A DNA stretch of 64,000 nucleotides from Candidatus Liptonbacteria bacterium (GTDB taxonomy: Bacteria; Patescibacteriota; Minisyncoccia; UBA6257; 2-01-FULL-56-20), in assembly GCA_016867315.1 (NCBI GenBank), contig VGJV01000001.1, positions 130,649 to 194,648 on the forward strand, given 5' to 3'. This document shows positions 3,819-56,913 of this stretch, piece by piece; position 1 is the first letter of the stretch, and every line of letters starts with the position of its first letter. Under the pieces are notes generated by a model, which saw nothing but the letters and a program-made list of their open reading frames with translations, searched no databases and had not been told where the DNA came from. Made by a program: the position numbers and the translations under genes.

Positions 3819-5147
3819 CTAACGAGCGTGAGGCCCATTTGCCGTCATTTCCCGCAACTCTTCCCGCACCACCAATCGATCATCCCAGGCAATACTTTTC
3901 CCTTTTATGATCATAGACTGCTCCGCTCCTTTGCCAGTAATAAGCACCACGTCTCCTTTCTCTCCCAACGAGAGAGCTTTTCGAATTCCTTCCTGGCGAT
4001 CTTCTATACAAAACAGCGTTTTATCTCTCTCCTTGCCAGCGGCTTCTGCAGCTTGGGCAATATCTTCAATAATCTGCATGGGGTCATCATCGTAGGGGTC
4101 CACATTGGAGACGATTACGAAATCGGCGAGCTTCCCCGCAAGCTCTCCCATTAAAGGCCGCTTTTCTTTATCCCGCCCCCCGCCCTCAGCCCCGAGCAGC
4201 ACGATCACCCTTCCTCTCTTTCCTGCAAGAGCCCGGCCCGCGGTTAGGGCGGCTTCCATGCTCACTTTTTCATGCGCGTAGTCCACGATCACTTTAAAGG
4301 ATTGCCCTTCTTCAATCTCTTCCATCCGGCCAGGAATAAGTTTTAAGAAGGCGAGCCCTTCCGCAATACAGGCAGTGGGGAACCCCAGCATTTCTCCCAA
4401 CGCAACTGCAGGAAGGGCATTTTGCACATTAAATTCTCCCGCAATATTCAGATGATATTCGGCTTCTTTTACTCGGAAGGAGACCCCGTCCTTCGTGCTT
4501 TTAATACTTGCGGCTACATAATCCGCTCCCTGCTCCACTATTCCAAAAGTTGCCACTTTGTCCGCAGGAAAGCTCAAGAAGAAATCTCGGTCGGCTGCAT
4601 CTTTATTGATCAACGTCATGCGCCCGATGGGTTCTCCGTCTATTATTTTTCGCGGGTGCGCGGTGAGCGCTTTAAACAACTTTCCCTTGGCTGCCCGATA
4701 CGCTTCGAAGCTTCCGTGCGCTTCGATGTGCTCCCTCGTGAGATTCGTGAACACCGCCACGTCATACCAGATTCCTATATGTCTCCACTGCGCAAGACCT
4801 TCCGAAGTAGTTTCGATCACGCAGTGCGTGCACCCCTCATTCACCATCAATCGAAGAAACTTTTGTAGTTCGAAGGGGCCGGGCATCGTCATGTGATAAG
4901 GGTTCAACATCTGCTTGTCCCCCACCCGGATGAGCGCGGTGCTTATAAGACCAGTTTGCTTCCCTCCCGCTTGTAGCACCGCCCACAGGAAATTCGCGGC
5001 AGTGGTTTTTCCTTTAGTGCCTGTGACTCCGATCACCACCATCCCCCGCGAAGGGAATTTATACCACCCTGCGGCGGCGAAGGCTCGGAGGTAGTGATAT
5101 GCCGAGAGCACCCAGCGAGGAGTAAATGATCGGATGGTTTTTTTCAT
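3819..5147 (-). CDS. murE: Mur ligase family, UDP-N-acetylmuramoyl-L-alanyl-D-glutamate--diamino acid ligase (MurE-like)
   Basis: P-loop GVTGTKGKTT and Mur ligase middle/C-terminal domains; overlaps the downstream FemAB gene by 4 nt. Confidence 0.65.
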   Translation of the reverse strand: MKKTIRSFTPRWVLSAYHYLRAFAAAGWYKFPSRGMVVIGVTGTKGKTTAANFLWAVLQAGGKQTGLISTALIRVGDKQMLNPYHMTMPGPFELQKFLRLMVNEGCTHCVIETTSEGLAQWRHIGIWYDVAVFTNLTREHIEAHGSFEAYRAAKGKLFKALTAHPRKIIDGEPIGRMTLINKDAADRDFFLSFPADKVATFGIVEQGADYVAASIKSTKDGVSFRVKEAEYHLNIAGEFNVQNALPAVALGEMLGFPTACIAEGLAFLKLIPGRMEEIEEGQSFKVIVDYAHEKVSMEAALTAGRALAGKRGRVIVLLGAEGGGRDKEKRPLMGELAGKLADFVIVSNVDPYDDDPMQIIEDIAQAAEAAGKERDKTLFCIEDRQEGIRKALSLGEKGDVVLITGKGAEQSMIIKGKSIAWDDRLVVREELREMTANGPHAR

Positions 5148-17275: not shown

Positions 17276-17445
17276 CCATAAGGAAGAAGTAGGTAGGTCA
17301 TTTGAAATCTGAGGGCTGGAATTATTTCTAGATATTTTAGGACGGCTTGGCTTCGGCGAAGCCCATCCTCAGAATAATTCTATCCTCTTTTCACTTTGTG
17401 AGAAGAGAAACCACCTGTCCCGATGAATTTCGGGATACGCCCTCA
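17276..17445 (+). ncRNA. candidate structured small RNA (unknown family)
   Basis: A 15-nt perfect long-range inverted repeat (ttgaaatctgagggc at 17302-17316 and gccctcagatttcaa at 17429-17443) closes a roughly 140-nt domain. Inside are the local hairpins ggcttcggcgaagcc, cctcttttcac/gtgagaagag and gtcccga/tcgggat. No start codon follows the AAGGAAG stretch. Confidence 0.2.
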
Positions 17446-17458
17446 GATTTCAAGCGAG

Positions 17459-19138
17459 CTACCATACTAAAGGACCGGTGACTTCCTCCACCTCTTTAGG
17501 ACTCGTCACCCCCTGAATGATTTTAAGTATTCCGTCTTGCTGCATGGTTACCATCCCCTGTTGCTCGGCGAGTTTGGCGAGCACCGCTTCGGAAGCTTCT
17601 CCTATAATTACCTCTTCCAAATCCCGCCCTCCCCGGAAAAATTCAAATATTCCCACTCTGCCTTTATAGCCAAAGTGGTTGCATACCTCACATCCTACCG
17701 GCTCAAAGAGCGTCGGGATGGCGTATTGCACTCGCTCCACTCGCGTGGGCAATTTTTTTAAGAACGCCTCGATTCTTTTTTTGAGTTCCGGCGTGGGTTC
17801 CACTGGTTTTTTACACTTTCCGCATAATTTTCGCACTAGCCGTTGAGCGATCACGAGCGAAAGCGCCGCGCCGATAGTCGCGGGCTTCACTCCGAGATTT
17901 GCCAACCTCGGCACCGCCCCCACCGCATCGTTCGTGTGTAGCGTGCTCAAGACTAGATGGCCAGTAAGCGACGCTTGTAACGCGATATCGGCGGTTTCCG
18001 TATCCCGAATTTCTCCCACGAGGACTATATCCGGGTCCTGCCTTACGATCGCTCGAAGGCCGCTTGCGAATGTATACCCTGCTTCCGGGTCGACTTGAGT
18101 CTGCTCAATACCTTCGATGCGATACTCAATAGGATCTTCCACGGTAATAATTTTCATCTCCGGATCGTTCAACTTCCGCAAAAAAGCGTACAGGGTGGTG
18201 GTTTTCCCGGAGCCGGTCGGCCCGGTGTTCAGGATTAACCCATTGGGTTTCGCGAGTTCCGCATTCACAATTACGAGATCATCCGGACGCAAGCCCAGGG
18301 CCGCAAATTCCAAAGTAGTTTCTTTGGGATCGAGCACCCGCATTACCACTGCTTCTCCAAACTCAGAAGGGGCGATAGAAACCCGGATTTCAATGTCCTT
18401 ACCCTCGACACGCACCGTGAATCTCCCATCCTGGGCTTCGTCTCTCACATTAATCTTTAGACCCGAGAGCAACTTCAGACGAGAAAGAAGCGATTCATAA
18501 CTTTTTACCGGAATGGCAGTGGCCGCATCGTGAAGGCGCCCGTCGATGCGATACCGGAACTTGGCATCTTTTTCTTCGGCTTCGCAGTGAATGTCTGACG
18601 CTTCGTTCGCGAGTGCGCCCGCGAGAAGCATTTCCAAAAGATCTGTAGTGCTTGTTTGATGAAAATCTAATTTACCAAATGCATCGTGCACCACTTGGAA
18701 GCCTTTAAGCTTCCCCATAAGTTCCGCGAATCGCCCTCCCAAATCCACCTTCCCAGTTATGTCGTGGGCTTCTTTGGCCGCGAAGGAATACATGTGCCAG
18801 AGTTCCTTAATTCCAGATTGCGACCCTATCATCACTTTAAACGTGGGGAATTGCTTTTTTAATTCACTTAGCAGCGCTTCGGTCGCGGGAAGACGAGGGT
18901 CTACCACCGCAACCACGAGGGCTTTATCTGTTTTTTCGAGTCCTACCGCCTGCGCTTCTTCGGCGCGCGCCTTAGGAATCACCAATACTGCATCAAACGA
19001 AGTGGGGACTTTACTTACTTCCACGTATGGGTAGCCTAGTTCTTCCGCCATCCTTTTTGCCGCTCTTTCTTCCCCCTCTCGGCGGAGACGGAGAAGTTCT
19101 TCATTTAACGGGGTGGGAGCAGCGATACTCATTGTCAC
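17459..19138 (-). CDS. pilB: type II/IV secretion-system ATPase of the GspE/PilB family (type IV pilus assembly ATPase)
   Basis: LNTGPTGSGKTTTL Walker A, VEDPIEY, a tetracysteine motif CGKCKK…CEVCN, and an N-terminal GSPII_E_N-like region. Confidence 0.8.
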   Translation of the reverse strand: MTMSIAAPTPLNEELLRLRREGEERAAKRMAEELGYPYVEVSKVPTSFDAVLVIPKARAEEAQAVGLEKTDKALVVAVVDPRLPATEALLSELKKQFPTFKVMIGSQSGIKELWHMYSFAAKEAHDITGKVDLGGRFAELMGKLKGFQVVHDAFGKLDFHQTSTTDLLEMLLAGALANEASDIHCEAEEKDAKFRYRIDGRLHDAATAIPVKSYESLLSRLKLLSGLKINVRDEAQDGRFTVRVEGKDIEIRVSIAPSEFGEAVVMRVLDPKETTLEFAALGLRPDDLVIVNAELAKPNGLILNTGPTGSGKTTTLYAFLRKLNDPEMKIITVEDPIEYRIEGIEQTQVDPEAGYTFASGLRAIVRQDPDIVLVGEIRDTETADIALQASLTGHLVLSTLHTNDAVGAVPRLANLGVKPATIGAALSLVIAQRLVRKLCGKCKKPVEPTPELKKRIEAFLKKLPTRVERVQYAIPTLFEPVGCEVCNHFGYKGRVGIFEFFRGGRDLEEVIIGEASEAVLAKLAEQQGMVTMQQDGILKIIQGVTSPKEVEEVTGPLVW

Positions 19139-19166: not shown

Positions 19167-19194
19167 GAAATTAGAAATTGGGAATTAGAAATTG
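19167..19194. repeat. tandem heptamer repeat GAAATTA GAAATTG GGAATTA GAAATTG (two adjacent 14-bp units)
   Basis: Read directly; it ends 12 nt before the yebC ATG, in the pilB-yebC divergent region. Confidence 0.5.
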
Positions 19195-31436: not shown

Positions 31437-33158
31437 TTATTTTTCTTTCAAAAGCTGTTCGGGGTTCGTGGTAACCAATTGGTCTTCGAAGTAGGAGGCT
31501 ATAATTTGGATGGCTACATGTTTTTTGCCTGCAAAAAACAACCCAGTCCCCACTTCTGCCCCGAGAAGCAGGCCTTTTTCGGCTTCCGTGAGATCGAAGG
31601 CTTTCGCTACTACGTCGATAGTGGCGGGGGCTTGTTTCAAAAGGAGCTGCAGGGAGGAGTTCGTAATAATAGGGCGGCCATAGGGAGAACGCAGGAAATC
31701 TTCCACGTCTTGGGTGATAGTAGAGACTCCCAGATAGTATTTTCGAGCTCGTTTTACTAAGCCGAAGAGGAAAGTGGCCGAGTCTTCGTTTTTCATCATG
31801 AGCCAGGCTTCATCGATGATGAGGATTCGACGCTTGAGCTTGGCCCTAATCAGATTCCAAATAAAGTTCAAAATCACAAACATCGCAATCGGGCGCAGTT
31901 CTTCTTCGAGGTCCCGAATGGAAAACACTATGAGGCGATTTCCAATGTCGATGTTCGTTTGTTTGTCGACAAAGCCCGCGAAGGAGCCTTTCGTGTATTT
32001 ATAGAGGCGTTCCGCCATTGCCCGTCCCCCTTCGAGATTTCGGAGCACGGTCTCCAAGTCTTCAAGGAGAGGGGGTTCTTTGCCGCTAAAATCTTCTCCC
32101 GCAACAATCTCACGCGAAGCGTATGTTTCGGTGATCGCTCGGTCGAGCAGCGAATCTTCTTCGGGGGTGAGTTTCCCAAGCATAAGCTTCACTAAGCTTG
32201 CGAGGTTTACAATATGCGATCGCAAAATGTCCGAAGCGGACTCCCCTTCCGGAATGATGGGGATATCGAAAGGATTAATGTGTTCTTCGGAAGAAAGAGA
32301 AATATTAAAGAAGCTCCCTCCTAAGGCTCGGGCTAAACGTTCATATTCGTTTTCCGGGTCGATCACAATTACCTCGGTGCCTACCATGAGCGAGCGGATG
32401 ATCTCGAGTTTGGTGGAGTAGGATTTTCCCGAGCCGGATTTGGCAAATACCACCTGGTTGGCGTTTTCAAGTGAGAAGCGATCGAATACGACCAGGCTGT
32501 TATTATGACGATTGATCCCGTACATTATTCCCTCGTTCGAGGTTAGATCTTCCGAAACAAAGGGGAAGAATGAGGAGATCGGACTCGAATTCATGGGAGT
32601 GTGTACATCGAGTTTATCGTTGCCGAATGGGAATACTGAGAGCAGGCCCTCGAGCTGTTCGAAGAGGGCAGGTTTGATGTAGACAAGTTTCGCTTCCATG
32701 AGGGAGACTATCTGGCTTTCCAGTTTCGCCAATTCTTCCGGGGTGTCGGCATAAATCGCAATATACACGGAAGTATTAAAAAGTTTTTCCTCGGATTGCT
32801 GGAGGGTGTCCCGAAGATTCTCCACATCCTTAAAAGCGGTTTCGAGGAGCGGATCTCTCACCAATCCCTTTTCTTCCGAGTCGGCGATTTGAGATTCGAG
32901 TTGCGCGGCTTTTTTACGCAGGTTTTTCAACGCATCGCCAGTATTGATCGGCGTAATGAAAATCGATACATCAAGCAAATTCGGAAGATTTACTAAGGGC
33001 TCAAACCAGCCGGTCGAAAGATACCGGGGGTAGGAGAGCACGAAAAAGGTTTTGGCGAGTTTGTTCCCGATTTTCAAATAGTTCGGAGTGACCTCCACTC
33101 CGGCAGGAGCGATGATTTTCGCAATGTCTGTGGGGTTGTTCTGCTTCGTTTCTTCCAT
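31437..33158 (-). CDS. virB4: VirB4/TraE/CagE-family type IV secretion ATPase (C-terminal portion carrying the ATPase domain)
   Basis: Walker A AKSGSGKSYSTK, VIDPENEY…INPFD, Walker B ILIIDEAW and the C-terminal TITQ motif, all VirB4 hallmarks. Confidence 0.75.
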   Translation of the reverse strand: MEETKQNNPTDIAKIIAPAGVEVTPNYLKIGNKLAKTFFVLSYPRYLSTGWFEPLVNLPNLLDVSIFITPINTGDALKNLRKKAAQLESQIADSEEKGLVRDPLLETAFKDVENLRDTLQQSEEKLFNTSVYIAIYADTPEELAKLESQIVSLMEAKLVYIKPALFEQLEGLLSVFPFGNDKLDVHTPMNSSPISSFFPFVSEDLTSNEGIMYGINRHNNSLVVFDRFSLENANQVVFAKSGSGKSYSTKLEIIRSLMVGTEVIVIDPENEYERLARALGGSFFNISLSSEEHINPFDIPIIPEGESASDILRSHIVNLASLVKLMLGKLTPEEDSLLDRAITETYASREIVAGEDFSGKEPPLLEDLETVLRNLEGGRAMAERLYKYTKGSFAGFVDKQTNIDIGNRLIVFSIRDLEEELRPIAMFVILNFIWNLIRAKLKRRILIIDEAWLMMKNEDSATFLFGLVKRARKYYLGVSTITQDVEDFLRSPYGRPIITNSSLQLLLKQAPATIDVVAKAFDLTEAEKGLLLGAEVGTGLFFAGKKHVAIQIIASYFEDQLVTTNPEQLLKEK

Positions 33159-33160
33159 GA

Positions 33161-33832
33161 TTATGTTTTAGCTTCGCTGCCCGGAATGGTGAGATCTTCT
33201 CTCTCGACGGATTCAGGATTATAAAAGTTATAGAGCATTTCCGCGAGTTCTTTATTTCCTAATGCCACGGCTTCCAAACCGATCGCGTTTAAACCTTCGA
33301 TAACCTGAGCGGTGCGTTGATTAAGTTGCTCCAAGGATTCTTTGAAATCCCCTTCTTTTTCTTCTGCGGCCGCCGCCGCCGCATTCTCGTTTTGTTTTAG
33401 AAATGGAATAAAACGCAGGATACTCCGTGTCGAGGGGAGGGCTACGGTTACCCAGGGGATCACCACAAAAAAAGTTTTTTCCATTATAGCGTTTTTTTCC
33501 ACAAAACCCCGGATGAATTCCCGGTATTCTGAGTTCTGGTTTCGTAATAGTGGGGAGGGTTCGGTTTTTTCAAATCCTCCCAACTTGTCGAGGTACTTTG
33601 AGATGTTAATTCTTCGGGAGTGAATAATAACTTGGAGCGGGAAATCAAGGGTGTTCAGAAAATTTTGATACCCGGAAGTGATGGTATTTTGTTCCGTTTC
33701 CGAACGCAGCGCGAAATTCATCCCGTTTACCATAAGGATTTGTCGTAGGCTGCCGTCGCGGAGTACCAGTACTCCATCGCGGACTTCTTTTACAGCCACT
33801 AAGTCTTGAGCGTTCGCGAATTGTTTTGGCAT
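33161..33832 (-). CDS. VirB4 N-terminal domain encoded as a separate ORF (split VirB4)
   Basis: DGVLVLRDGSLRQILMVNGMNFALRSETEQ…FLNTLDFPLQVIIHSRR matches the Gram-positive VirB4 N-terminal pattern. It ends TAA-tc-ATG, 2 nt before the ATPase ORF. Confidence 0.45.
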   Translation of the reverse strand: MPKQFANAQDLVAVKEVRDGVLVLRDGSLRQILMVNGMNFALRSETEQNTITSGYQNFLNTLDFPLQVIIHSRRINISKYLDKLGGFEKTEPSPLLRNQNSEYREFIRGFVEKNAIMEKTFFVVIPWVTVALPSTRSILRFIPFLKQNENAAAAAAEEKEGDFKESLEQLNQRTAQVIEGLNAIGLEAVALGNKELAEMLYNFYNPESVEREDLTIPGSEAKT

Positions 33833-33837
33833 AGAAC

Positions 33838-33867
33838 AGCTTTAAGGTTTAAGCTTTGAGCTTTAAG
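33838..33867 (+). repeat. 30-bp heptamer element, copy 1 (AGCTTTA AGGTTTA AGCTTTG AGCTTTA AG)
   Basis: Read directly; intergenic. Confidence 0.7.
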
Positions 33868-33879
33868 TGGAAGACCTTC

Positions 33880-34245
33880 TTATTGTACCTTTTTTTGCTC
33901 AAGTTTCTCCTTCATCCCGTAAAGCATTTTCTGGACTTCATCGAGGAGAGATTCGGCTCGTGCGTAGTTCAGTTTAGAATATAGGCGTTTCGCAATTATG
34001 AGTTGAGTTTCTAATTCTGCAGAAGACGCGTCGGCTATTCTTAGGAAGTGGAGGTATTCCGGAATGTCTTTTCGGCGAGAGCCTTCAGCAATGTTTGATG
34101 GTATGGAAATTGTAGCTCTCCGCATTTGAATGCTAAGACCAAACATCTCTTCTTTTGGGAATTGTGCAGTGAGTTCGTAAACTTCAATTACAAGCTCAAT
34201 CGATCTTTGCCATACAATAAGTTCTTTGTAGGATTTTACATACAT
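33880..34245 (-). CDS. four-helix-bundle protein (23S rRNA intervening-sequence protein family, TIGR02436-like)
   Basis: MYVKSYKELIVWQRSIELVIEVYELTAQFPKEE…SIPSNIAEG…LHFLRIADASSAELETQLIIA is characteristic of the family. Confidence 0.7.
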   Translation of the reverse strand: MYVKSYKELIVWQRSIELVIEVYELTAQFPKEEMFGLSIQMRRATISIPSNIAEGSRRKDIPEYLHFLRIADASSAELETQLIIAKRLYSKLNYARAESLLDEVQKMLYGMKEKLEQKKVQ

Positions 34246-34251
34246 ATTGGA

Positions 34252-34281
34252 CTCAAAGCTTAAAGCTGGAAGCTAAAAGCT
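34252..34281 (-). repeat. 30-bp heptamer element, copy 2, in inverted orientation (plus strand reads CTCAAAGCTTAAAGCTGGAAGCTAAAAGCT)
   Basis: Read directly; together with copy 1 it brackets the four-helix-bundle gene. Confidence 0.7.
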
Positions 34282-34287
34282 ATGTAG

Positions 34288-34794
34288 CTATCTGTAGTCT
34301 ACCCGGCGGGCAGCGTGCCGTTCGCCGGTTTTTTTCCGAAACACTGCAAATTGATCCTCGGCCTGGTTCAAGAAGGTTCCCGGGGAGATTTTCCCGGTTC
34401 CGGTTTGCAGCTTTTGCCAGGTTTTTCGCAGGGCCAATCCGGAGAGCACTTCTTCGAGGGAGGCGTTCGAAGTGGGAGAGGTGGGCTCTAGTACGGGAGC
34501 AGGAGCAGTTTTCTTATCCTGGGGTTGCCATACGTACGTTTGAGGTTTCCAGAAGTAGAAGAATGCAGCACGAGCTACGGTAGGAAGAGAACGCCCCCCG
34601 ATCTTTACAAACGCAAGCGCGATACCTATGGCAACAAGGGGCAAAGAGACCAAGAGCCACAGCCATAGTTCCACGAGAAGATATAATATGAGAGATATTC
34701 CTCCCGTAATTCCTATATAGATGAATTGTTTGAGGCTCAAAGGCCCCACAATTTTATCTTCGGTTTCGATGAATTGAGGAACTTGGAATTGCAT
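34288..34794 (-). CDS. PrgI-family (VirB3-like) small membrane protein
   Basis: MQFQVPQFIETEDKIVGPLSLKQFIYIG followed by two TM helices, as in Gram-positive T4SS PrgI proteins. Confidence 0.5.
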   Translation of the reverse strand: MQFQVPQFIETEDKIVGPLSLKQFIYIGITGGISLILYLLVELWLWLLVSLPLVAIGIALAFVKIGGRSLPTVARAAFFYFWKPQTYVWQPQDKKTAPAPVLEPTSPTSNASLEEVLSGLALRKTWQKLQTGTGKISPGTFLNQAEDQFAVFRKKTGERHAARRVDYR

Positions 34795-34801
34795 CAGATT
34801 T

Positions 34802-34831
34802 AGCTTTAAGCGTTAAGCTTTTAGCTTTAAG
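34802..34831 (+). repeat. 30-bp heptamer element, copy 3 (AGCTTTA AGCGTTA AGCTTTT AGCTTTA AG)
   Basis: Read directly; intergenic. Confidence 0.7.
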
Positions 34832-41766: not shown

Positions 41767-42564
41767 CTAGAAAAAGGAGGTGAGGGAGTGAATTTGGGAA
41801 AGAGAGAGGGTTTGGGGGCGGACCGAGGGGTCGATCCCCTTCTCTTTCAGGATTTTGGCGAGTTTCTCTTTGGGGAGCTGGAGGGTGGCGGCAAGATTAT
41901 TGAGCACTGTTTTTCGAGGTTGGCTGAATAATGATTGTACTGTAGCGAAATATTTTTTTTCTTTTCCTTGTTTCACGATGGGGAAAATTTGAATGACTGC
42001 GGATTCTACTTTAGGGGGAGGAGAAAAGGCTCCAGGGGGAATTTGGAGAATAATTTTACCTTTTCCCCAAAATCCCACACTTGCCGCCAATTTATTCATA
42101 TGCGGAGGTTTGGCGAGGAGTCGCTCCGCTACTTCTTTTTGAATCAAAAGAACCGTTAGCTGGGGAGAGGGCTCGCGTTCTCCGATAAGACGTAAGAGAA
42201 ACCCTGTAAGATAGTAAGGAATGTTTCCTACTATTTTATAGGGCAGCTTTGAGCTTTGAGCTTTGAGCTTTGAGATCAGAGAGGGAAGCACTTCTCGAAC
42301 ATCACCCTCTACAATTTCTAGATTTCTGGCTTTGGCAAATTTTATCCGAAGCTCTTCTGCGAGTCGCGCGTCTTTTTCTATCGTTACGATTTTTGGGGGG
42401 CTCGCTAAAAGCTTATCGCTTAACGCTAAAAGCTCTTTCGTGAGTTCCCCGTGTCCTCCCCCTATTTCAATTACCGTTTCTCCTTTTTGGGGAGCAAGGG
42501 CCGCCGTAATTTTAAAAAGCGCGCTTTTATCTTTTAGAAAGTGTTGACCAAGCTTCTGTCCCAT
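41767..42564 (-). CDS. rsmA: 16S rRNA (adenine1518/1519-N6)-dimethyltransferase RsmA/KsgA, carrying two in-frame 10-codon insertions
   Basis: MGQKLGQHFLKDKSALFKI… with the SAM motif VIEIGGGHGELT. The two insertions are the heptamer elements at 42245 and 42405. Confidence 0.85.
   Translation of the reverse strand: MGQKLGQHFLKDKSALFKITAALAPQKGETVIEIGGGHGELTKELLALSDKLLASPPKIVTIEKDARLAEELRIKFAKARNLEIVEGDVREVLPSLISKLKAQSSKLPYKIVGNIPYYLTGFLLRLIGEREPSPQLTVLLIQKEVAERLLAKPPHMNKLAASVGFWGKGKIILQIPPGAFSPPPKVESAVIQIFPIVKQGKEKKYFATVQSLFSQPRKTVLNNLAATLQLPKEKLAKILKEKGIDPSVRPQTLSLSQIHSLTSFF
42245..42274 (+). repeat. 30-bp heptamer element, copy 4 (AGCTTTG x4 plus AG), in-frame inside ksgA (encodes KLKAQSSKLP-region)
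   Basis: Read directly and translated. Confidence 0.7.
42405..42434 (-). repeat. 30-bp heptamer element, copy 5, inverted orientation (CTAAAAGCTTATCGCTTAACGCTAAAAGCT), in-frame inside ksgA (encodes LALSDKLLAS)
   Basis: Read directly and translated. Confidence 0.65.
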
Positions 42565-43793: not shown

Positions 43794-45586
43794 TCCAATT
43801 GGATTTCTAAATCGTCGGAATACGAATCCGAATAAGAAGGGTCTGTCGCGGTTTCGGTGCGAAGAAACTCCGCGAGATTGGGCGGAATTTCGCCTATGAA
43901 TCGGGAAGGAATCCCGGAGAAAGAAATCGCCAGCTCGTGGCGCGCTCGCGTCATTCCTACATACATCAATCGGCGTTCTTCTTCAATCTCGTTTTCTGAT
44001 TCCATAGAGCGATTGTGAGGCAACATTCCTTCAGCGCAGCCAGCGAGAAAAACCTGGTCGAATTCTAGGCCTTTTGCAAGGTGAATGGTCGAGAGATGGA
44101 CCGGCATAGCGTTAAGCGTTAAGCTTTTAGCTTTAAGTTCCGCGTTCACGTCGTCGGTCGATTGCACGAGCGCAATATGTTCGAGAAAGGTTCCCAGATC
44201 ACTAAAGCTTTCTGCAAATCGAAGCAGCTCATTGATGTTTTCGCGCCGCTCCTCCGGATTCATCGTTTCTCGTTCAAGATAGTCGAAATACTCTGTAGTG
44301 GAGAGAAAGTTTTCGATTACTTCTCGAGGAGGTTTCCCCAGAGCTTCTTCGAGCACTGGAAGAAGGGCTTTCCAAACTCGGACGCGAAAAGCCTTTTCTA
44401 ACCGTTCGCGGCTCATTTCATCTTTGGGATTCATTGTGAGGCGGAGCGCTGCCACAATGTCTTTAATTTCGCGGCGGTCATAAAATTTTAAGCCTCCGTA
44501 AATTCGGTACGCAATGTTTTTCTTGAGTAGGGCTTGTTCGATTGCACGGGATTGCGCGTTCGTGCGGTAGAGAATCGCGGTACTTCCCTGCCTGTTTCCT
44601 TTAGAGAGCTTCCCTTCCAAAATTTGTGCGGCGATCCATTCTGCTTCATCCTCTTCATTTAACGTTTCCGTAATCGTGATTACCTCGCCGTCTGGGTTGC
44701 GCGTCCAGAGATTTTTTTCCCGAGCTACTATATTGTTCGCGATCACCGCTGAGGCTGCGTGTACGATCGTGCCCGACGAGCGATAGTTTTCCTCAAGGAG
44801 TACCACTTGCGCGTTCGGCCAATCCCGCTCGAACTGGAGAAACGTTTCTATGTTGGCATACCTCCATCCATAGATCATTTGAGCATCGTCTCCCACGACA
44901 CTCACATTTTTGTTAGGCCCAGAGAGAAGTCGGATTAAGGTATATTGCGCAGGACTCACATCTTGATATTCATCTACCAGGATATACTGGTATTTTTCCT
45001 GATACTTCGCGAGAATGGCGGGACGATTTTCGAAAAGCCAAACTACTTTCGCAATAAGATCGTCAAAATCGAACGCGTTATTTCGAGTGAGCGCCATTTC
45101 ATATCGCTCAAACACTCTTTGTTCTTCGCGGTGACGAAGCGAGAGGGTTTCTTTTCCGGCGCCGCTCTTTATATAGGAGATGAATTGAAGGAAGCGCGGA
45201 GGTTTGCCGCCCTTAATATCCAACTCCTTTAGCACTTTTTTTATTACGGAAAGGCTGTCGTGATCATCAAAAATAGTGAAGTGTGAGGTACGGCCTAGCT
45301 CCTTAGCTTCTTTTCTTAAGATATTTGCCCCGAGGGAATGAAAGGTGCCGATGAAGCCTCCAGATTTGGGATTGTAGTGCACTCGTTCCGCCATTTCTTT
45401 AGCGGCTTTATTTGTAAAGGTAACCGCGCATATAGTGTGGGCAGGCGCTCCGTGTTCAATAAGGTGCATAAGCCTGCTCGTAAGGGTTCGGGTTTTGCCT
45501 GTGCCTGCTCCTGCCACAATCAAAAGGGGCGTGTTTTCGGCTTTCACGGCACGTTGCTGTTGGGGATTTAAAGTGGAAAAGTCCAT
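43790..45586 (-). CDS. pcrA: UvrD/PcrA-family ATP-dependent DNA helicase (short form) with one in-frame 10-codon insertion
   Basis: Walker A AGAGTGKTRTL and motifs …VDEYQD…, …TIHLAKGLEF…; the insertion is the heptamer element at 44108. Confidence 0.85.
   Translation of the reverse strand: MDFSTLNPQQQRAVKAENTPLLIVAGAGTGKTRTLTSRLMHLIEHGAPAHTICAVTFTNKAAKEMAERVHYNPKSGGFIGTFHSLGANILRKEAKELGRTSHFTIFDDHDSLSVIKKVLKELDIKGGKPPRFLQFISYIKSGAGKETLSLRHREEQRVFERYEMALTRNNAFDFDDLIAKVVWLFENRPAILAKYQEKYQYILVDEYQDVSPAQYTLIRLLSGPNKNVSVVGDDAQMIYGWRYANIETFLQFERDWPNAQVVLLEENYRSSGTIVHAASAVIANNIVAREKNLWTRNPDGEVITITETLNEEDEAEWIAAQILEGKLSKGNRQGSTAILYRTNAQSRAIEQALLKKNIAYRIYGGLKFYDRREIKDIVAALRLTMNPKDEMSRERLEKAFRVRVWKALLPVLEEALGKPPREVIENFLSTTEYFDYLERETMNPEERRENINELLRFAESFSDLGTFLEHIALVQSTDDVNAELKAKSLTLNAMPVHLSTIHLAKGLEFDQVFLAGCAEGMLPHNRSMESENEIEEERRLMYVGMTRARHELAISFSGIPSRFIGEIPPNLAEFLRTETATDPSYSDSYSDDLEIQLD
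44108..44137 (+). repeat. 30-bp heptamer element, copy 6 (AGCGTTA AGCGTTA AGCTTTT AGCTTTA AG), in-frame inside pcrA (encodes LKAKSLTLNA)
   Basis: 29/30 identical to copy 3. Confidence 0.7.
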
Positions 45587-45803
45587 AAAAGTGCCTATAT
45601 TATGAAGAGTTTTTCATATTGCGGCGAGAGGGCCGCTCCAGTATACTATAGGCCAGAGCCTATCCGAAAACCCCCTCCGGCCGCGATACGAGCAAATTTC
45701 TCGGAATTCCAAGGCTTACTGACGATGGCGTACTCGGAGAGTACGGCGAGGAGGTGTAACGCAGGAATTCAGAAAATTTGCTGTATCCCCAAGGGTTGCG
45801 GAC

Positions 45804-45891
45804 AATTCATTTTCCTGCTGTGTTACTCCTCGGAGCTGTACTATCGTACTAATCTCCTCGTCGTGCCTTGCAGGAAAATGAATTTTCCTGC
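45804..45891 (+). promoter_or_regulatory. dyad-symmetry element overlapping the start codon of the LysM-M23 peptidase gene
   Basis: The perfect 9-4-9 palindrome GCAGGAAAA-TGAA-TTTTCCTGC (45870-45891) encloses the ATG at 45878. An upstream 15-nt segment AATTCATTTTCCTGC (45804-45818) is perfectly complementary to 45870-45884. Confidence 0.35.
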
Positions 45892-46951
45892 AACGCGGGC
45901 GCGGAGCGGGTTTACGGATAGGCTCTTATCGAAAATGGGAGCTATTTTACCGCTTAAGGAGGGAGGAAAGAGGCCATTACTTGTGGCGTTTTTTTTGCTT
46001 GGGGGATTACTTCTTGTAGGCCTTTTTACATCTTTGGTCCAGCCGGTTCGAGGAGGGGAAAAGGGTATATGGGGAGGCCCTGTTACGGAGCCAAACAATC
46101 GCAATCTTCTTGCGTGGCTCGAAAGTCAGCCTCGGATAGGATCCTCGAACTCCCATGAGGCGAGAGTAGATTCAAAAGTTTCTTTCCTCGTCGCCACTCT
46201 GGATGCTTTTGGGGAGACTCCAGGATTTGCTCCTCGCACGGAATTTACTACATATAAAGTGATGCGAGGAGACACTCCGGGGAAGATTGCGGCGAAATTT
46301 GGAATTTCGCTCGATACTTTGCTCAAAGCAAATGCCGATATGAAAGCGAAAAGTCTGCGGATCGGAATGCTGCTTCAAGTGCCCCCCGTGTCGGGGACGG
46401 TTTACACCATTAAGGAGAAAGACACGATTGAGTCTATTTCGGAACTTTTTGCGGTGAGTTCAAAGGATATTGGCGCAGCCAATCCTTCCGTGAATGCTGC
46501 GCAGCTAACTCCGGGTATGAGGCTTATTATTCCGGGTACTACTAAGCGAGTGGCAGATTCCGGGAATCCCCTACCGGTGCTCAAGGGGTATTTCACCATG
46601 CCCGCGAGTGGATTTAATTGGGGGAAATTACATCCGGAAAATGCAGTGGATATTGCCGGAGTTTGCGGGACTCCCGTGGTTGCTGCGGCAGAGGGACTGG
46701 TTATCCCTGATGAAAAACATGGGAATAGCACGGATGGATGGAATGGGGGTTATGGTAATTTTGTGTTGCTTGAGCATCCGGCCGGAGCGAACGTACGGAC
46801 GCGATACGCTCATCTGCGGTCGGTGTCTGTAGAAGTGGGAGACTATGTGCGCCAAGGACAGGATATTGGAACGATGGGTGATACCGGAGATGCTTCAGGG
46901 TGCCACGTGCATTTCGAGGTGCACGGAGTAGCGAATCCTTTTGTTAAGTAG
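45878..46951 (+). CDS. LysM-domain (x2) M23-family metallopeptidase (peptidoglycan endopeptidase), membrane-anchored
   Basis: LysM segments YKVMRGDTPGKIAAKFGISLDTLLKAN and YTIKEKDTIESISELF; M23 motifs HxxxD (…HPAGANVRTRYAHL…) and GDTGDASGCHVHFEV. The upstream track extension from 45602 is Cys-rich and non-protein-like, so the start is taken at 45878 (45935 is an alternative). Confidence 0.7.
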   Translation: MNFPATRARSGFTDRLLSKMGAILPLKEGGKRPLLVAFFLLGGLLLVGLFTSLVQPVRGGEKGIWGGPVTEPNNRNLLAWLESQPRIGSSNSHEARVDSKVSFLVATLDAFGETPGFAPRTEFTTYKVMRGDTPGKIAAKFGISLDTLLKANADMKAKSLRIGMLLQVPPVSGTVYTIKEKDTIESISELFAVSSKDIGAANPSVNAAQLTPGMRLIIPGTTKRVADSGNPLPVLKGYFTMPASGFNWGKLHPENAVDIAGVCGTPVVAAAEGLVIPDEKHGNSTDGWNGGYGNFVLLEHPAGANVRTRYAHLRSVSVEVGDYVRQGQDIGTMGDTGDASGCHVHFEVHGVANPFVK

Positions 46952-56656: not shown

Positions 56657-56727
56657 GCGGGTATCGTATAATGGCATTACCTCAGCTTTCCAAGCTGATG
56701 ACAGGGGTTCGATTCCCCTTACCCGCT
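56657..56727 (+). tRNA. tRNA-Gly (anticodon UCC)
   Basis: Manual cloverleaf: acceptor GCGGGTA/TACCCGC, anticodon stem TCAGC/GCTGA with loop TTTCCAA, T-arm AGGGG-TTCGATT-CCCCT, discriminator T. Confidence 0.7.
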
Positions 56728-56913
56728 CACTGAAATTAAAACGCTCATCGTAAGGTGGGTGTTTTAATTTTAGCTTGATGAGTAGGGGAATCGAACTAGC
56801 AGCGCCCCGTGTTGGAGAGCGTGGAGAACCAGAAGTGTCCGCCGCGATCGCGCGCGGACCTTTCACGGGATTGATTATTTTTGGGGGATACGGTACAAAG
56901 TCTACGTATAGAC

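Follow-up and report, generated by a model that had tools for sequence, protein, structure and literature searches.

What is a small gene for a four-helix-bundle (4HB) protein doing between two genes of an operon that resembles a type IV secretion system (T4SS), and why is it bracketed so closely by two inverted arrays of a heptamer? This question is raised by a 64-kb stretch of DNA, called the window in the following, from a Candidatus Liptonbacteria bacterium (Paceibacterota/Parcubacteria). A sequence-only reading had taken the gene and its arrays for a tiny mobile or recombination cassette that landed between a PrgI-like gene and the VirB4 gene. The observation itself, a 4HB gene bracketed by inverted heptamer arrays, is confirmed by our analysis. 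Moreover, genes of the family PF05635 typically travel with a cognate pair of inverted heptamer arrays, both in rRNA and in protein-coding operons of Xanthomonas, cyanobacteria and Paceibacterota. Our preferred reading, held with modest conviction, is that of a cassette of the type of the rRNA intervening sequences (IVS), which would be carried in the operon transcript and whose arms would pair into a stem for RNase III.

The gene and its paired arrays

Tandem Repeats Finder reports 4.3 heptamer copies at 33838-33867 and 4.0 copies at 34255-34282. Both arrays have the unit AGCKTTN, comprise about 30 nt each and lie in opposite orientation: the plus strand reads AGCTTTA AGGTTTA AGCTTTG AGCTTTA AG at 33838-33867 and carries a reverse-complement array of the same kind at 34252-34281. 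According to the inverted-repeat finder, 33838-33860 pairs with 34252-34274 (23 nt, 87% complementary, 391 nt between the arms), which is rank 4 by arm length among the 11 inverted pairs lying at most 1.5 kb apart in the whole window. With up to two mismatches, the pattern AGCTTTAAGCTTT occurs 19 times in the window against 2.9 expected matches, and none of 100 shuffled sequences reached this number. Of the open reading frames (ORFs) with 50 aa or more, the 384 bp separating the arrays (33868-34251) hold just one, on the minus strand at 33880-34245. The sequence-only description of inverted copies around 384 bp with nothing but the 4HB ORF is borne out. In transcript sense, the cassette consists of the following parts:

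34252..34295, minus strand: 5' arm, UAGCUAC AUAGCUU UUAGCUU CCAGCUU UAAGCUU UGAG
33880..34245, minus strand: 4HB gene, 121 aa, with matches to PF05635 and TIGR02436; it looks intact
33830..33867, minus strand: 3' arm, CUUAAAG CUCAAAG CUUAAAC CUUAAAG CUG

The 5' arm covers the stop codon of the PrgI-like gene and stops 6 nt short of the 4HB start codon.

The encoded protein is a four-helix bundle of the 23S IVS type, as had been proposed. It matches PF05635 with an E-value of 2.7e-34 (118 bits, cut-off 33.8; residues 7-110 on profile positions 1-106 of 106) and TIGR02436 with 1.8e-33 (115 bits, cut-off 24), and it resembles XCC0516 (PDB 2GSC, E 2.1e-22). Five columns, Q40, R43, S47, N51 and E54, are invariant among seven aligned cassette proteins. 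The family motif is given as GxxRxxxSxxxNxxE (PMC3936711); the window protein has RxxxSxxxNxxE in a stretch that aligns to XCC0516, with Q40 and not a glycine three residues ahead of R43. In the part of PMC4990558 that cites Lin 2006, the family is described as homopentameric and, judging from the similarity to PDB 2GSC, the window protein would likewise form a homopentameric toroid. The proposed family link to rRNA IVS and to Avd also proved correct. Avd of a diversity-generating retroelement was tried as an identity for the protein itself and rejected, the scores lying below the cut-offs of bAvd PF22296 (30.7 bits, cut-off 40) and NF033474 (23.1, cut-off 80). The neighbouring ORFs that were scanned include no reverse transcriptase family, with no specific search made for template or variable repeats, and PADLOC, which covers anti-phage defence, gave no match for the 4HB protein. 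It is encoded by the only 4HB gene in the window.

The association of such genes with arrays was assessed in 160 loci, 80 around VirB4 homologues in species-representative genomes and 80 around 4HB homologues in metagenomes. For the metagenome scan the query was a four-sequence alignment, a seven-sequence one being too divergent. RNAduplex energies computed for long flanks tolerate large loops and failed to tell cassettes from controls; we therefore used an ungapped complementarity score with a threshold of at least 11 and with ORFs of at least 150 aa as controls. By this score, 60 of the 76 assessable 4HB ORFs (79%) have complementary flanks, compared to 32 of 1092 control ORFs (2.9%), and several of the high-scoring control ORFs adjoin 4HB cassettes. 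Of the 16 apparent exceptions, the majority prove to have arrays if homology, and not the next stop codon, defines the end of the ORF. The bracketing of 4HB genes by arrays is beyond chance.

The arms of a cassette also fit each other specifically. Across 72 non-redundant cassettes, the median arm complementarity is 13.5 for cognate and 7 for non-cognate pairs, and when the 3' arms are ranked as partners of a 5' arm, the cognate one comes first in 38 cases and within the top three in 51. The idea that other 4HB genes might be flanked by the heptamer as well was right for the flanking (the 60 of 76 above), but the unit is specific to each cassette. Each arm fits its own partner while the repeat unit varies between cassettes, and L029 and L181 even hold two unit families each in one operon. 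Within the VirB4 set, the 4HB genes of L021, L025, L029 (two cassettes), L041 and L075 are each accompanied by inverted short-period tandem arrays, and L059 contains a 4HB pseudogene with degenerate arms. Examples of such arm pairs are:

L025: GCCACTA / TAGTGGC
L029, first cassette, a decamer: ATGCTGCTAG / CTAGCAGCAT
L029, second cassette: GTTAGTT / AACTAAC
L075: ACCAACA / TTGTTGG
L041: AGCTTTC / AAGCTGA

Some properties recur in spite of the varying unit. The 5' arms contain TAG 124 times and CTA 24 times, and the 5' arm has more G than C in 62 of the 72 cassettes (p ~3e-10). Since the two arms are reverse complements, this polarity reads alike on both strands and is silent on which strand matters. 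The distance from the 5' arm to the 4HB start has a median of 20 nt (6 nt in the window), and 64% of the 4HB genes, compared to 27% of the controls, have stop codons in every frame in the 50 nt before them.

A few loci deserve mention on their own account. In L091 (490-1377) and L112 (914-1747) the 4HB frame crosses the 3' arm with no stop codon, in L112 into a PrgI-like downstream gene; these apparent fusions could be real or could be sequencing or assembly errors. CTCAAAT arrays are also present ahead of two unrelated genes in L147. In the Paceibacterota loci L065 (~4343-4910), L086 (~4482-5076) and L156 (327-1002), we noticed IS200/RAYT-like genes with an N-terminal YHxxSRG and perfect or near-perfect flanking palindromes, possibly systems of repetitive extragenic palindromes (REP) and REP-associated tyrosine transposases (RAYT) in genomes of the candidate phyla radiation (CPR).

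The same layout is found in other phyla. A tblastn search of plasmids showed 4HB genes to be nearly confined to cyanobacteria, where they have the following flanks:

Nostoc edaphicum plasmid: TAGGGAG x 8 / TCCCTAC x 5
N. punctiforme plasmid: TCAGGAG x 8 / CTCCTGA x 5
Anabaena sp. 90 plasmid: GGTGACA / CTGTCAC, the gene lying between cas6 and cas4

Genes annotated as 23S_rRNA_IVP have been recorded within cas operons (PMC3936711), and they have also been recorded in 16S and 23S insertions of CPR bacteria. In Xanthomonas, inverted GGGAATC arrays surround the XCC0516-type 4HB gene between accB and accC (L186 and L188, 1923-2433). In the 23S rRNA IVS of Coxiella, tandem heptamers with the unit GACAGAT lie between the 5' end and the start codon of S23p (PMC4990558).

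History of the cassette and single arrays

All genes of the cassette stretch lie on the minus strand, in the order PrgI, 4HB, VirB4-N and the remainder of VirB4. The neighbours of the cassette are:

34288..34794, minus strand: PrgI-like (VirB3-type) gene, upstream neighbour; PF12666, E 6.8e-8; kept as a neighbour in the 80 related loci
33161..33832, minus strand: VirB4 N-terminal fragment (VirB4-N), 223 aa, TraC-like, downstream neighbour; NCBIfam VirB4 models match N-terminal parts only; precomputed matches PF26593 and PF27097
31437..33158, minus strand: VirB4 remainder, ATPase, 573 aa; NF045971, E 1.2e-117

VirB4 is thus split into two ORFs that are 2 nt apart and in different reading frames (31437-33832). 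Nearly all of the 80 related loci give separate tblastn matches for the two parts; L029, L041 and L167 have a 4HB cassette exactly between them.

In about 70 of the 80 VirB4 loci, PrgI is directly followed by VirB4-N without a 4HB gene, in some of them with spacers of only 17-27 nt. The empty site at this junction, for which the sequence-only reading had suggested to look in relatives, therefore exists. A landing between the two genes agrees with this; however, it was not recent. The closest 4HB homologues (67-74% identity; L180, L181, L182 and L183, plus L092), whose proteins form a group with a GSRRKDLPEYLQFLR-like signature, all occupy the exact junction of PrgI and VirB4-N, and for this reason we regard the cassette as ancestral at this site. 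A neighbour-joining tree of VirB4-C intersperses genomes that have the cassette with genomes that lack it, which is fitted best by one old insertion at the junction, vertical inheritance and repeated loss. The empty sites in related species would likewise fit one old gain with repeated losses, the source population being invariant. No difference separates ten population contigs from different samples (100% identity), with 1070 nt compared in nine of them and 847 nt in the tenth. Among these ten there is no variation in array copy number as slippage would cause it, and no empty/filled polymorphism was found in the source population, as every contig with an identical PrgI has the cassette.

Over evolutionary time scales, the cassette has moved: other lineages have 4HB cassettes at two further junctions of this operon, and one genome contains two paralogues. 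The supposed mobility holds in this sense, but not the supposed terminal inverted repeats of a mobile element, since the arms are cassette-specific and no transposase was matched among the ORFs scanned. There are also junction arrays without an ORF. At the PrgI-VirB4 junction, a pair of inverted arrays separated by some 30 nt is found in L015 and L021, and one array alone in L017, L023 and L025. Together with the empty sites, these ORF-less hairpins and single arrays look like stages of cassette decay and not like evidence against the association. As to the notion that the cassette may show how the heptamer elements spread, such remains would account for the junction arrays, but not for the arrays in frame within genes. 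The junction array of L025 (5252-5287), GGGTTTA x 4, has the repeat unit of plant telomeres and is unlike the GCCACTA arms around the 4HB gene of this locus. L182, from another Liptonbacteria genome, has a Fic-domain gene and a small ORF inserted upstream of PrgI (1721-2361) as well as an ORF-less hairpin between PrgI and the 4HB gene.

The arms of orthologous cassettes can change together. In L183, the closest relative (VirB4-C 92% identical), they are TAGGTGT/ACACCTA where the window has TAGCTTT/AAAGCTA. The two paralogous cassettes of L181, with proteins 75% identical, are divided between the TAGGTGT and the TAGCTTT family. Overall, arm family and similarity of the 4HB proteins are not correlated, which argues against a protein-specific recognition of the variable unit positions.

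Altogether, the window contains six arrays of the AGCKTTN family and one of another unit. Three of the six lie 4-7 nt before start codons and three inside ORFs. Apart from the two arms, these arrays are:

34802..34831, minus strand: one array (AAAGCUN) of the 3'-arm type, 7 nt ahead of the start codon of PrgI
42408..42434, minus strand: array of the 5'-arm type, in frame in ksgA/rsmA, encoding approximately LALSDKLLAS
42245..42274, minus strand: perfect array, AGCTTTG x 4.3 if read on the plus strand, of the 3'-arm type and in frame in ksgA/rsmA
44108..44137, minus strand: array of the 3'-arm type, in frame in pcrA/uvrD, encoding LKAKSLTLNA in a variable linker
19167-19193: array of a different heptamer (unit TAATTTC), CAATTTC TAATTCC CAATTTC TAATTTC in gene sense, reaching into the end of one gene, with the next gene starting some 30 nt further on

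The array upstream of PrgI complements the 5' arm of the cassette as well as the true 3' arm does, and the flanks of PrgI reach a complementarity score of 14. In L021, L025, L029, L059, L181 and seven metagenome loci a 4HB cassette is located upstream of PrgI, and the array of the window may be a remnant, namely the surviving 3' arm of a lost cassette. The two ksgA arrays are inverted to each other and 133 nt apart, 42245-42274 being the downstream one. The segment 42408-42434 forms an insertion of 7-8 aa in comparison to KsgA of B. subtilis and to the Paceibacterota homologues P0132, P0133 and P0137; it is common to the closest homologues, and LALSDKLL is kept in the nearest one. Being shared with a homologue of 57% identity, the array is an old insertion that now codes for protein.

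Further observations concern the window as a whole. Shine-Dalgarno-like motifs are rare (9 of 54 ORFs). A TATAAT-like box is found 5-12 nt ahead of the start codon of many genes and likewise at the empty PrgI-VirB4 junctions of relatives, which suggests that leaderless messages are widespread. Three other inverted repeats were noticed. At 56707-56796, the first of two 41-nt arms (73% complementary, 8 nt apart) begins within the 3' end of the tRNA at 56657-56727, giving a partial inverted copy of the tRNA end just downstream of it. At 45655-45926, 25-nt arms (92% complementary, 222 nt apart) lie within the ORF 45602-46951, and at 17292-17463, 25-nt arms (88% complementary, 122 nt apart) lie in the spacer that precedes the gene ending at 19138.

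What the paired arrays might do

In both the minimum-free-energy and the centroid RNA folds, a stem between the two arms closes the cassette. Joined by a short linker, the arms fold with -30.3 kcal/mol (z -3.8), and none of 200 shuffles was as good. No promoter-like or terminator-like sites were found flanking the cassette on the gene strand. For the 23S rRNA IVS of Coxiella it has been described that its terminal inverted repeats pair into a stem of 28 bp, which is cut by RNase III in vitro (PMC4990558). From the folds, the missing promoter and terminator and this precedent, we infer that the cassette would be co-transcribed in the operon RNA, that its arms would pair into a stem of about 30 bp looping out the 4HB ORF, and that RNase III would cut this stem. 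The 4HB message would thereby be freed, and the VirB4-N message would receive a 5' end few bases away from its AUG. The predicted stem reaches over the VirB4-N start codon (33832-33830), and one might speculate that a cut near the base of the stem, including this AUG, yields a near-leaderless message, which could suit a genome poor in Shine-Dalgarno motifs. The arms of 23-31 nt with 87% complementarity correspond to the long closing stem that terminal inverted repeats form in an IVS, and the 4.0-4.3 heptamers, 6 nt before the ATG, correspond to the tandem heptamers ahead of S23p in Coxiella. The placement differs from that of an rRNA IVS, since the cassette has the protein genes PrgI and VirB4 on its two sides and not parts of a 23S or 16S gene. 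Rfam recognises only three tRNAs in the window, rRNA is absent from the window and from 20 related loci, and a scan of the locus itself gave only two chance-level matches, so that no known RNA family is present there. On balance, we lean towards an IVS-type cassette with an RNA stem.

Several findings weigh against this preference, however. The mismatches in the arms carry no signature of G·U wobbles (55 of G·U type, 66 of A·C type), and complementarity is therefore possibly kept at the DNA level or by copying from arm to arm; a role in DNA or such copying may be at work instead of selection for an RNA stem. Co-orientation with the neighbours (58 of 63 upstream, 41 of 50 downstream) is only weakly above the background of 82% that applies to adjacent gene pairs in general, and two of the cyanobacterial cassettes are antisense to their neighbours. 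In L143, L144 and L147, the GAGATTT arrays flanking the 4HB gene are in direct and not in inverted orientation. The array upstream of PrgI is a second complementary array that competes for the 5' arm, and single arrays, including the in-frame ones in ksgA and pcrA/uvrD, are not accounted for by a stem. Finally, a motif scan of the window revealed neither an RNase III gene nor RAYT motifs, and the RNase III of the genome is assumed.

Could the arrays be the terminal inverted repeats of a small DNA transposon, resembling a miniature inverted-repeat transposable element (MITE), on which a transposase or recombinase acting in trans would move the 4HB gene? The inverted geometry of the ends and the empty sites among relatives would agree with this, as would the presence of cassettes at three junctions of one operon with a paralogous pair in L181, the very large and patchily distributed family, and the Y1/RAYT-like genes with palindromic flanks in some related loci. 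However, the arms vary in sequence from cassette to cassette, even inside a single genome, leaving no common recognition sequence, and orthologous cassettes persist stably from species to species, with no variation in the population. Transposase, integrase and reverse transcriptase families were unmatched among the neighbouring ORFs scanned, which cover part of the window, and 64 kb contain a single 4HB gene. Target-site duplications beside the repeats, for which the sequence-only reading had suggested to look, were not seen on reading the flanks, where the outer bases CAUAG ... CUAUG are mutually complementary and not direct repeats. We consider such a transposon quite unlikely. It appears similarly improbable that the heptamers are independent, genome-wide repeats of spacers near starts, serving for instance as all-frame stops or as insulators of translation, and that the 4HB gene is bracketed merely by way of its two spacers. 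Arrays without a 4HB gene do occur before PrgI, in ksgA and pcrA/uvrD, at 19167-19193 and at the junctions of L015, L017, L023, L025 and L051, and the direct orientation in L143, L144 and L147 speaks for them as well. Published heptamers lie mostly just upstream of starts, as do the TAACTGA repeats of Beggiatoaceae, which in forward orientation stop all three frames (PMC4679880), and all-frame stops are enriched upstream of 4HB genes (64% vs 27%). Independent repeats would not, however, produce the flank enrichment of 79% vs 2.9%, the specificity of cognate pairs, the concerted change of both arms at an orthologous site (window vs L183) or two unit families in one operon that each pair with their own partner; and the Xanthomonas unit GGGAATC contains no stop codon, yet flanks the 4HB gene in the same way.

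The arrays might also be binding sites of the 4HB protein. The TRAP protein binds spaced GAG/UAG triplets, and in a comparable manner a 4HB pentamer ring might wrap single-stranded RNA or DNA of the form (YAGNNNN)4-5, for autoregulation or message protection, with the stem being secondary. Attractive as this is, we would give it little credence as a full explanation, but it is compatible with an IVS-type cassette and does not exclude it. The arms comprise 4-5 units, which goes well with a homopentameric family as described where PMC4990558 cites Lin 2006; the 5' arm conserves only a YAG-type triplet and leaves the other four bases free (TAG 124 vs CTA 24), its polarity is conserved (G over C in 62 of 72), and it adjoins the 4HB start (median 20 nt, here 6 nt). 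On the other hand, the units GGGAATC of Xanthomonas and GACAGAT of Coxiella lack TAG, the cassettes L181a and L181b differ in their arms at 75% protein identity, and the polarity, being strand-symmetric, does not single out the sense RNA. A wider view, which is still unlikely though we would dismiss it less readily, is that 4HB genes and the bacterial heptamer arrays, i.e. the short tandemly repeated repetitive (STRR) sequences, the GGGAATC and TAACTGA types and those of the window, are the two halves of one widespread system, in which the cassette would bring its own pair of arrays and the protein would bind such arrays or help to make or copy them. If, for example, G/T-rich heptamers were added from a template to the 3' ends of DNA, a strand-symmetric polarity as observed would result. 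The single and in-frame arrays, which number in the thousands, would have arisen from this system as its products or footprints and not by ordinary replication slippage. If this were true, the rRNA IVS would be merely the best-known landing site.

Relation to known systems

To our knowledge, rRNA IVS and S23p genes have been known since the early 1990s without either their function or their means of spread being established, and heptamer repeats (STRR, GGGAATC, TAACTGA) have been catalogued separately for decades without a mechanism. From the locus described here and its relatives it is evident that the two belong together. The culturable hosts, Xanthomonas with its accB-4HB-accC arrangement and Nostoc, open questions of mRNA cutting, operon tuning, repeat binding and concerted arm change to study. 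For annotation, some caution is advisable, since a short insertion of some 30 nt that keeps the frame of a housekeeping gene in such genomes can be an inserted repeat array. The connection of PF05635 genes with bacterial heptamer repeats appears to be undescribed. The open-access literature yielded no statement of a general link between 4HB genes and heptamer arrays, apart from the passing note on Coxiella, and an older subscription paper might contain one; S23p, four-helix bundles and intervening sequences are not mentioned in PMC4692102 and PMC4679880.

With REP elements and their paired form (REPIN) with RAYTs, MITEs and the attC sites of integrons, the cassette shares short inverted repeats capable of forming hairpins and the occurrence of ORF-less doublets. 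As in attC, structure is more conserved than sequence and a promoterless ORF stands in line with the transcription unit of the host. In contrast to all of these, the cassette arms are tandem heptamer arrays on either side of an ORF, without a shared sequence or a GTAG-type cleavage motif in common; no integrase or RAYT gene adjoins the cassette, and there is no target-site duplication. Avd has a homologous four-helix-bundle fold and belongs to a pentameric family, but the cassette has T4SS-like genes as neighbours and its protein scores under both curated cut-offs.

The heptamer simple sequence repeats (STRR, GGGAATC/GGGGAYT and TAACTGA) resemble the arrays of the window in their 7-nt tandem units with 2-14 copies, in their mostly intergenic position near starts, in the occasional in-frame occurrence inside ORFs and in the frequency of convergent inverted pairs. 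The papers on GGGAATC in Xanthomonas, with 70 convergent pairs in X. campestris, and GGGGAYT in Nostoc (PMC4692102) and on TAACTGA (PMC4679880) read the repeats as regulatory or quadruplex-forming, and the GGGAATC arrays at the Xanthomonas 4HB gene are these same published repeats. Unlike the heptamer repeats as published, the arrays described here are cognate pairs bracketing one gene family.

The closest counterpart is the ORF-containing 23S rRNA IVS of Leptospira, Coxiella burnetii and Brucella with an S23p of the Xanthomonas type. It likewise has a PF05635 gene in the loop and a stem of about 28-30 bp made by its terminal inverted repeats, it occurs in ORF-less derivatives, and it has no recognisable promoter of its own and needs transcription by its host. 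Whereas the 23S rRNA IVS is located in helix 25 or 45, the host of the cassette is a protein-coding operon, and whereas rRNA is fragmented there, RNase III would here sever an mRNA, a processing step that we postulate from the parallels named above. It is as a variant of the rRNA IVS, living in a protein-coding operon, that the cassette is best filed.

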